Source: a virus (lineage: Duplodnaviria > Heunggongvirae > Uroviricota > Caudoviricetes). Taken from it: a stretch of DNA of 33,771 bases. The stretch is from the IMG/VR virus record IMGVR_UViG_3300025711_000006; one strand, 5' to 3'. Positions 58 through 973 of the stretch are shown piece after piece. The notes under the pieces were generated by a model. The model was not told the origin of the DNA, made no database searches, and saw only the letters and a list, made by a program, of their open reading frames with translations. How positions within the stretch are numbered: position 1 is the stretch's first letter; each line of letters begins with the position of its first letter. The position numbers and the translations under genes are program-made.

Positions 58-85
58 ATTAGATCACACTTTTCTATTTTGTCAA
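58..85 (-). promoter_or_regulatory. sigma70-like promoter, leftward out of the window
   Basis: Minus strand TTGACA (85-80), 16-nt spacer, TGA-TCTAAT (-10 at 63-58, with extended TGn). Upstream context TACCCTATTGAC is shared with the promoter at 2072-2099. Confidence 0.6.
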
Positions 86-125
86 TAGGGTAAGTGCAAT
101 TAAATGCAACTTTCTCAAACTTTTG

Positions 126-750: not shown

Positions 751-835
751 TGGGTGAGGGCACTTCTTAATCGCGGCCCTCAGCGCGATACACACTCTAG
801 GTTGGTTCTAGAGAATCCCAAGGCGCGGGAGTGTG
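751..835 (-). ncRNA. putative structured RNA: three-way junction + H-type pseudoknot ending in CCA
   Basis: Minus strand (A)CACA-C-TCCC/GGGA-TT-CTCTAG/CTAGAG-TGTGT, then ATCGCG-C-TGAGGGC-CGCGAT-TAAGAAGT-GCCCTCA-C-CCA. Structure read by eye. Confidence 0.6.
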
Positions 836-907: not shown

Positions 908-973
908 CTCGATTTGAAGCCCAGCCTTTACGCACCAATGCACAGACTAGTAGTTTAAATGGTGGCTTCAAAT

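Follow-up and report, generated by a model that had tools for sequence, protein, structure and literature searches.

A spacer in a phage tRNA cluster holds an RNA element consisting of two hairpins, hp1 and hp2, followed by an H-type pseudoknot, and this hp1-hp2-knot module is a well-supported RNA family that occurs in cultivable phages and is not in the RNA catalogues. The element came from a 33,771-nucleotide stretch (the window) of a 105-kb IMG/VR phage genome. The minus strand of the window carries five tRNA genes, for Gln, Trp, Glu, Phe, and Arg (ARAGORN and Rfam), and the module lies on the same strand in the 228-nt spacer between tRNA-Gln and tRNA-Trp (Table 1). An earlier note on this DNA had described the element as a list of short pairing strings; by reading the sequence, we located all of them at 746–836 of the minus strand.

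Table 1. Positions of the element, its parts, and related features (window coordinates unless a locus is named)
Feature	Position	Strand	Basis or remark
H-type pseudoknot core	755–789	minus	sequence and covariation, alignment A3
S1, ATCGCG/CGCGAT, 6 bp	784–789 with 770–775	minus	sequence
L1, C, 1 nt	783	minus	sequence
S2, TGAGGGC/GCCCTCA, 7 bp	776–782 with 755–761	minus	sequence
L3, A-rich, TAAGAAGT as DNA, UAAGAAGU as RNA	762–769	minus	sequence
hp1, TCCC-GCGCCTT-GGGA, 4 bp, loop GCGCCUU	816–830	minus	sequence and homologues
hp2, CTCTAG-AACCAAC-CTAGAG, 6 bp, 7-nt loop AACCAAC	795–813	minus	sequence and homologues
P1 5′ strand, ACACA	832–836	minus	pairs with 790–794 here; not conserved
P1 3′ strand, TGTGT (UGUGU)	790–794	minus	2- to 5-nt linker between hp2 and S1 in relatives
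Single-stranded tail, 9 nt: C (754), CCA (751–753), TTTCT (UUUCU; 746–750)	746–754	minus	sequence
tRNA-Trp, CCA anticodon, encoded 3′ CCA; gene linked to the knot	670–745	minus	ARAGORN, Rfam
tRNA-Gln	974–1049	minus	ARAGORN, Rfam
Degenerate tRNA-like module, ends in CCA directly 5′ of hp1	836–907	minus	sequence reading
Gene for a very basic 45-aa protein inside the tRNA cluster	437–571	minus	phrog_11200, no Pfam family
Sister knot before tRNA-Asn	G000:C1 about 623–667 (outside the window); L002:6667–6708; L016:4434–4478; L019:4107–4148; L020:4160–4201; L038:about 2700–2749
Extra module of ~130 nt	L016:2470–2606; L019:2269–2401; L040:1521–1650

The pseudoknot and its hairpins

The earlier note had proposed an H-type pseudoknot, its L1 short and its L3 rich in A, and had named homologue covariation as a check on its stems. 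We aligned 18 distinct homologues, nearly free of gaps (alignment A3), and scored the alignment on the S1/S2 structure. Standard pairs filled 89.7% of the cells, against 33–51% when the partners were slid by one to three columns. Both sides of a pair had changed at 11 of the 13 pairs (45 cells), with five of six pairs affected in helix 1 and six of seven in helix 2. None of 500 shuffles of A3 matched the observed pairing, the double-change counts, or the covariation score. The compensatory changes in both S1 and S2 bear out the proposed fold, and the S1/S2 pseudoknot is strongly supported as a real structure that exceeds chance. Single-sequence folding was unremarkable (z = −1.73 on either strand), and the case therefore depends on comparison with relatives. 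By nearest-neighbor energies, S1 alone contributes −6.9 kcal/mol and S2 alone −10.7 kcal/mol.

The family core has an S1 of 5 bp and an S2 of 6 bp, and the window copy, with 6 and 7 bp, stands at the long extreme; the outermost pair of each helix, formed in the window, is unpaired in 10 of the 18 aligned sequences. Among these homologues, L1 ranges from 1 to 3 nt, L2 from 0 to 1 nt (0 in the window), and L3 from 6 to 10 nt. L1 begins with an invariant C (consensus CA), and L3 is A-rich (consensus UUAUAAAU). The strands run in the order S1-5′, S2-5′, S1-3′, S2-3′, with no nucleotide common to two of them. Because the strands share no nucleotides and the loop lengths suit the grooves that they cross, both helices can coexist. 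The element thus has what defines a classical H-type pseudoknot, namely a helix order with evolutionary support and groove-compatible loops, and the invariant C of L1 together with the A-rich L3 makes groove triples probable. Read from the complementary strand, the loops would trade lengths, leaving an impossible 1-nt L3, and three G-U cells would turn into A-C; the fold is specific to the tRNA-coding strand, as the earlier note had maintained.

Luteovirus frameshift knots, such as that of BWYV, are compact H-type structures with a C in loop 1, an A-rich loop 3, and an S2 of 3 bp. The phage knot resembles them in its two stems, its C-initial L1 of 1–2 nt, its lack of a junction nucleotide, and its A-rich L3 running across an S1 of 5–6 bp. 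It differs in having an S2 of 6–7 bp rather than 3, and it is noncoding, has no slippery site, and sits in a tRNA operon.

Both hairpins were also upheld, with invariant loops and covarying stems that exceed chance. The hp1 loop GCGCCUU is invariant in 19 of 19 homologues and is always followed by GG, and its stem occurs in four versions (TCCC/GGGA, ATCCC/GGGAT, ATCCTC/GGGGAT, and CATACC/GGTATG); in five relatives, the loop carries an insertion. Around the hp2 loop, (A)ACCAAC, 19 homologues display 19 different, fully paired stems of 3–8 bp, and the loop measures 6 nt in four relatives. In Ep020, vB_PseuGesM_254, and NoPa, hp1/hp2 are missing or detached from the knot. The invariant loops probably bind a protein or another part of the RNA. 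Within the module, CCAA in hp2 is the complement of UUGG, which stands at the 3′ edge of the hp1 loop, and GCGC of hp1 is self-complementary.

We searched tRNA-Trp and the phage genome for a consistent partner of the two loops and found none. The loop complements were not enriched in the phage genome (8 + 7 copies of AAGGCGC and 7 + 12 of GTTGGTT on the two strands, with ~6.4 expected per strand). AACCAAC of hp2 can pair with GUUGGUU in the variable region of tRNA-Trp only in the window, L002, and L016; the match is absent from L019 and from all other tRNA-Trp genes, and we took it as a coincidence. A T-box-like specifier (UGG in hp1) was rejected, as the module before tRNA-Asn has no counterpart. 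Elsewhere in the source genome, CGGTTGGTTAG occurs in six copies within ~6.5 kb (G000:C1 25186–31660, minus-strand reading); these copies probably reflect a peptide motif repeated within a large structural gene, with no relation to the hp2 loop.

The two remaining parts of the proposed anatomy, a three-way junction closed by P1 and a C-CCA end 5 nt before tRNA-Trp, are present in the window and have no counterpart in most relatives. A P1 of 5 bp can be drawn around both hairpins in the window (−2.3 kcal/mol). In most relatives, hp2 is followed by 2–5 nt and then by S1, and the 5′ flank of hp1 has no pairing partner; the pairing is absent from phiPsa374, VCM, Kremar, REC, PE09, L020, and others. 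UGUGU also stands 3′ of hp2 in L016 and L019, and in the window, A836 is shared with the upstream pseudo-tRNA, whose CCA it completes. P1 and the three-way junction are peculiar to the window genome and do not rise above chance.

The tail after S2′ is likewise variable. It begins with CCCA only in the window, with CCTA in L002 and L016, with CAAA in L019, and with CTAA in L020; the rest have TCGAA or ACGAA. RCCA is missing from 15 of the 18 homologues, yet all of the phage tRNA-Trp genes encode CCA. Since the tails differ among relatives, we rejected the CCA as a functional 3′ end of the family. AUUUCU or AUUCU also stands 5′ of tRNA-Asn and tRNA-Gly in the same genome, and UUUCU, the last five nucleotides of the tail, is this phage's usual tRNA leader. 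The 9-nt tail is probably the RNase P leader of tRNA-Trp.

Relatives and position before tRNA genes

Relatives were retrieved via two neighbor genes, a 205-aa gene upstream of the element and the gene for the 45-aa basic protein downstream, and the module was then located in these loci by motif search and a purpose-written pseudoknot finder. The 205-aa gene led to L002; the 45-aa protein led to L016 and L018 in IMG/VR, eight metagenome loci, and 63 cultured phage records. The cultured phages are Pseudomonas phages, namely Otagovirus, Flaumdravirus, and relatives, plus one Pectobacterium/Dickeya phage; they include phiPsa374, VCM, KIL1–5, PHB09, PPSC2, and the vB_PpuM phages. With the phiPsa374 copy as query, blastn found the module in 47 phage records, just one of which has a feature annotated under it.

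Searches starting from the window copy itself returned little. Blastn of the window region against phages recovered tRNA genes only, and the exact pattern of the window knot had no match in IMG/VR. A pattern spanning the tRNA-Trp junction found only the L002 contig, and one built on the TCGAAT tail gave 11 matches, of which one was true. Rfam 15, at the gathering score and at E values up to 10, reported five tRNAs and nothing on the element; the models with no match on it include tRNA, Tymo_tRNA-like, HDV-like, pistol, hatchet, twister, and preQ1. The comparison with HDV-like/theta ribozyme models that the earlier note had called for thus gave no match at E up to 10. Literature searches yielded no description of an hp1-hp2-knot motif, and a search on Otagovirus found no transcriptome paper.

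The distance between knot and tRNA-Trp is fixed. At most loci, 8–10 nt separate the end of the knot from tRNA-Trp or from a degenerate tRNA-Trp missed by ARAGORN (as in VCM and Ep020). This spacing is kept whether the upstream neighbor is tRNA-Gln, tRNA-Ser, tRNA-Tyr, or a protein gene, and the tRNA-Trp genes linked to the knot fall into two clearly distinct sequence types. The two tRNA-Trp genes overlooked by ARAGORN lie at L039:1745–1822 (VCM, where the gene is unannotated) and L042:2138–2215 (Ep020); that of VCM has an enlarged D region, and that of Ep020 has a poorly paired acceptor stem.

The sequence upstream of the knot differs between loci: the window has a structured spacer, phiPsa374 and NoPa have a DUF7338 gene, and L025 and L026 have a small-protein gene. 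In Otagovirus and the Pseudomonas putida phages, the DUF7338 gene (PF24027) is inserted between tRNA-Gln and hp1 (L038:1020–1580; L046:1579–2145), and the hp1-hp2-knot module forms the 3′ UTR of that gene at these loci. The small-protein gene of L025 and L026 encodes 45 aa and directly precedes the knot and tRNA-Trp.

In some genomes, the knot and tRNA-Trp are apart. An extra structured module of ~130 nt separates them in L016, L019, and KIL4, and an insertion does so in PHB09 and REC. Besides a long-range stem, the ~130-nt module contains a conserved UAUUUGGCCCUCC stretch and a terminal hairpin whose stem covaries and whose loop reads ACxxACUCAA.

We scanned all loci for knots with a score of at least 10.5 that end 6–12 nt upstream of a tRNA. 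Such knots preceded 27 of 345 tRNAs and none of 345 shuffled upstream regions, and tRNA-Trp and tRNA-Asn accounted for 22 of the 27. The tRNA-Asn knots form a sister family of the same architecture, 8–10 nt before tRNA-Asn in 13 of 23 cases, including the source genome outside the window. The sister knot has different stems, an ACAG-type S1, and a similar A-rich L3 (CUAAAUAAG); comparison between phages shows covariation in its S1 and S2 too, and 5′ of it lies a hairpin whose loop is CUCCC. Further knot leaders may precede tRNA-Arg (KIL4 and PHB09) and tRNA-Ala (L018 and L021).

The surrounding cluster contains other features. The degenerate tRNA-like module upstream of hp1 has all four arms, with noncanonical T and anticodon loops, and has counterparts in L020, L023 (ending in A-CCA), and L024. 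Immediately past the CCA of tRNA-Gln begins a 10-bp long-range stem (912–973, minus strand), in which AUUUGAAGCC pairs with GGCUUCAAAU around ~42 enclosed nucleotides; it covaries in L002, L016, and L019, and in the Ala-Asn spacer of this genome, a comparable stem-closed domain begins past a tRNA-like gene. Two other minus-strand stretches outside the tRNAs are conserved in L002 and L016: the spacer between Phe and Arg (203–343) and the long RNA that precedes tRNA-Gln (1050–1378). A promoter-like motif, TTACCCTATTGAC, with a −10-like box stands at the operon start and again past tRNA-Arg (about 2093–2105 and 83–95, minus strand), and L002 and L016 have the motif too. Conservation of the 45-aa basic protein extends to 63 phage records and 86 protein clusters, and the protein is a putative RNA-binding partner of the element. 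The Pfam and PHROGs assignments of neighbor genes were uninformative (an HTH protein, phrog_11200 of unknown function, phrog_1491 "tail fiber protein," and DUF7338).

A proposed 3′ cap and its alternatives

We tentatively favor a reading in which the element is processing punctuation combined with a 3′ cap, the knot protecting an RNA end made by RNase P; we would give it somewhat less than an even chance. The hp1-hp2-knot would be transcribed as a three-part module within the phage tRNA operon, with the pseudoknot as its working part. We infer that host RNase P would cut the operon transcript at the 5′ end (+1) of tRNA-Trp, so that the knot, followed by a short tail, would become the 3′ terminus of the upstream RNA, and that the tail would be just long enough for RNase P to act on the tRNA. 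The knot would then mechanically block the 3′–5′ exonucleases PNPase, RNase II, and RNase R and so stabilize the upstream RNA. In the window, the RNA capped in this way would be structured spacer RNA; in Otagovirus, it would be the mRNA of DUF7338, and in L025 and L026, that of the small protein.

The cap reading is favored because a robust knot stays constant near the RNase P site while the upstream content varies, which is the pattern expected if the knot caps any RNA that precedes it, and also because compensatory changes in S1 and S2 have kept the pseudoknot geometry. The constrained position before tRNA-Trp and the independent tRNA-Asn family of like architecture point the same way. A plain hairpin would insulate the tRNA, yet a knot with triplex-type loops has been conserved, which suggests that mechanical stability is needed. 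Several observations weigh against the cap. The knot is separated from tRNA-Trp in the five genomes named above, a 9-nt tail would still let RNase R engage, and the cap explains neither the invariance of the hp1 and hp2 loops nor the preference for tRNA-Trp and tRNA-Asn. Moreover, other gene-tRNA junctions of the same operons, such as the small-protein gene before tRNA-Phe/tRNA-Glu, have no knot, so the device is not general at such junctions. Among the functional readings of the earlier note, nuclease blocking or processing nonetheless agrees best with the anatomy that is conserved, and a mimic that could be charged is unlikely.

Two precedents have a similar layout. One is phage T5, some of whose annotated stable RNAs adjoin the 5′ end of a tRNA; the other is eukaryotic. 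The 3′ end of MALAT1 arises when RNase P cuts at the tRNA-like mascRNA, and a triple helix protects it (PMC8457004, PMC13170383). The phage element and the MALAT1/MEN-beta ENE may thus be analogous in that a compact triplex-type structure would guard an RNase P-made 3′ end. The MALAT1 structure is a U-A-U triple helix that takes in the 3′-terminal A tract and leaves no overhang, whereas the phage element is an H-type pseudoknot with a tail of 8–10 nt and a true tRNA next to it, and its protective role is one that we infer.

The same geometry could instead serve the downstream tRNA in cis. The knot would keep the structured leader from mispairing with tRNA-Trp or tRNA-Asn and would present a defined, single-stranded leader of 8–10 nt to the RNase P holoenzyme or order the processing steps. 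That the spacing is fixed in two independent families is consistent with such a role, and so is the linkage to tRNA-Trp, which survives upstream swaps (Gln, Ser, Tyr, or a gene) and holds for two tRNA-Trp types. A simple hairpin would suffice for this purpose, however, such leaders are missing before most tRNAs of these operons, and the knot is detached from the tRNA in five genomes; we consider a cis leader rather unlikely.

The hairpin loops raise another alternative, to which we likewise assign a low probability. Invariant loops on freely changing stems are a signature of sequence-specific recognition, and the hp1-hp2-knot might be released as a protein-binding or trans-acting small RNA of ~85–95 nt whose loops GCGCCUU and AACCAAC are read by a phage protein (e.g., the 45-aa basic protein), a host protein, or a target RNA. 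Such a role would be compatible with the cap. The small-protein gene co-occurs with the module in phage records, but this co-occurrence is biased, the loci having been retrieved using the 45-aa protein itself. Stable RNAs are known from the tRNA region of phage T5; against a small RNA, the loop complements occur in the phage genome at near the expected frequency, and three genomes have lost or detached hp1/hp2.

Mimicry of a tRNA appears improbable. S2 stacked on S1 (11–13 bp) would stand for an acceptor/T-arm minihelix, and its length does equal that of a tRNA minihelix; hp2 would stand for an anticodon arm reading CCA, and the loop, A-A-CCA-A-C, indeed centers the Trp anticodon triplet in a module that travels with tRNA-Trp. 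The element could then be a pseudo-substrate that RNase P cuts in L1, a decoy or ligand of tRNA-Trp factors, or an aminoacylated RNA. Bacterial RNase P cleaves small pseudoknot model substrates in loop 1 provided that they end in RCCA (PMC12710915). The element shares with these substrates a small H-type knot and a single-stranded L1, and the window has C-CCA and its two closest relatives A-CCU; an RCCA-like tail is confined to the window, and most homologues lack the RCCA that the substrates require. These tRNA-Trp genes have G73, whereas the discriminator position of the element is C, U, or A; the hp2 loop has A rather than U at position 33 and is 6 nt long in four relatives. A T-loop and a D-loop are absent, the sister module before tRNA-Asn has no loop bearing GUU, and the Rfam tRNA and tRNA-like models give no score on the element.

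The mimic in its plant-virus form, a pseudoknotted acceptor followed by NCCA, was a specific proposal of the earlier note and did not hold up. As in the plant-virus tRNA-like structures (Tymo_tRNA-like, RF00233), a hairpin loop pairs just before the 3′ tail, with NCCA in the window genome only; unlike them, the element is internal to a transcript rather than at a genome 3′ end, and its CCA is unconserved. A search with these models gave no match on 746–840 at E up to 10 and one weak Tymo match (E 9.7) on tRNA-Glu (592–655), and the element sequence has no T-loop or D-loop motif from which a tRNA elbow could be built. A related idea, that the excised module acts in trans as a decoy or regulator of tRNA-Trp, with the knot as acceptor/T minihelix and the hp2 loop displaying CCA, so as to engage a host or phage factor specific to tRNA-Trp (e.g., the synthetase, a nuclease that cuts anticodons, a modification enzyme, or RNase P), seems to us quite improbable.

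A small self-cleaving ribozyme of pistol-like or HDV-like/theta type that aids tRNA precursor processing is highly improbable: the pistol P1/pseudoknot core is also a hairpin loop pairing downstream past an A-rich linker, and theta ribozymes are reported to flank phage tRNAs (PMC10879173), but no Rfam ribozyme model matched at E up to 10, the order hp1, hp2, S1, S2, S1′, S2′ differs from the nested double pseudoknot of HDV, an L2 of 0 leaves no P3 between S2-5′ and S1-3′, the pistol P2, P3, and G-U cleavage strand are missing with just 8–10 nt past S2′, and the conserved bases sit in hairpin loops rather than junctions. We therefore rejected the HDV-like/theta class on strand order and the pistol class as alike only in its core. 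A preQ1-type or other pseudoknot riboswitch was rejected as well, with no Rfam match at E up to 10 and a tRNA, not a coding gene, downstream.

Known RNAs of phage tRNA clusters and significance

Phage tRNA clusters are known to encode structured RNAs other than tRNAs, and we regard the element as a variant of these. It lies between a pseudo-tRNA or tRNA-Gln and tRNA-Trp on the same strand, as such an RNA would. The T5 record NC_005859 annotates several stable RNAs, RNA I among them, and some directly adjoin the 5′ end of a tRNA: RNAIII does so at tRNA-His and RNAX at tRNA-Arg. RNase P would make the 3′ ends of these two. A scan of T5 revealed no pseudoknot leader at the family cutoff of 10.5; the best score was 9.75, before tRNA-Asn, and a further match of 10.0 before tRNA-Leu falls within the neighboring tRNA. 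Phage T4 has rnaC and rnaD, stable RNAs of its tRNA gene cluster. The element shares with the T5 and T4 RNAs a non-tRNA structure on the tRNA strand within the cluster; it has no sequence similarity to them.

Phage tRNA clusters are usually annotated as tRNAs and junk spacers, and here a spacer holds a motif of ~85 nt with textbook covariation. At least 47 sequenced, laboratory-cultivable phages of Pseudomonas and Pectobacterium carry the motif; one of them, phiPsa374, is a biocontrol phage for kiwifruit canker. A role in the processing or stability of the phage tRNA operon is more likely for this uncatalogued element than one as a tRNA mimic that can be charged. The fixed distance to the RNase P site of tRNA-Trp and the twin before tRNA-Asn suggest a general device, which would couple tRNA excision to the fate of the neighboring RNA and would be a bacterial counterpart of the MALAT1 solution. 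If the cap idea is true, the motif could be used as a compact 3′-end stabilizer for engineered bacterial transcripts.
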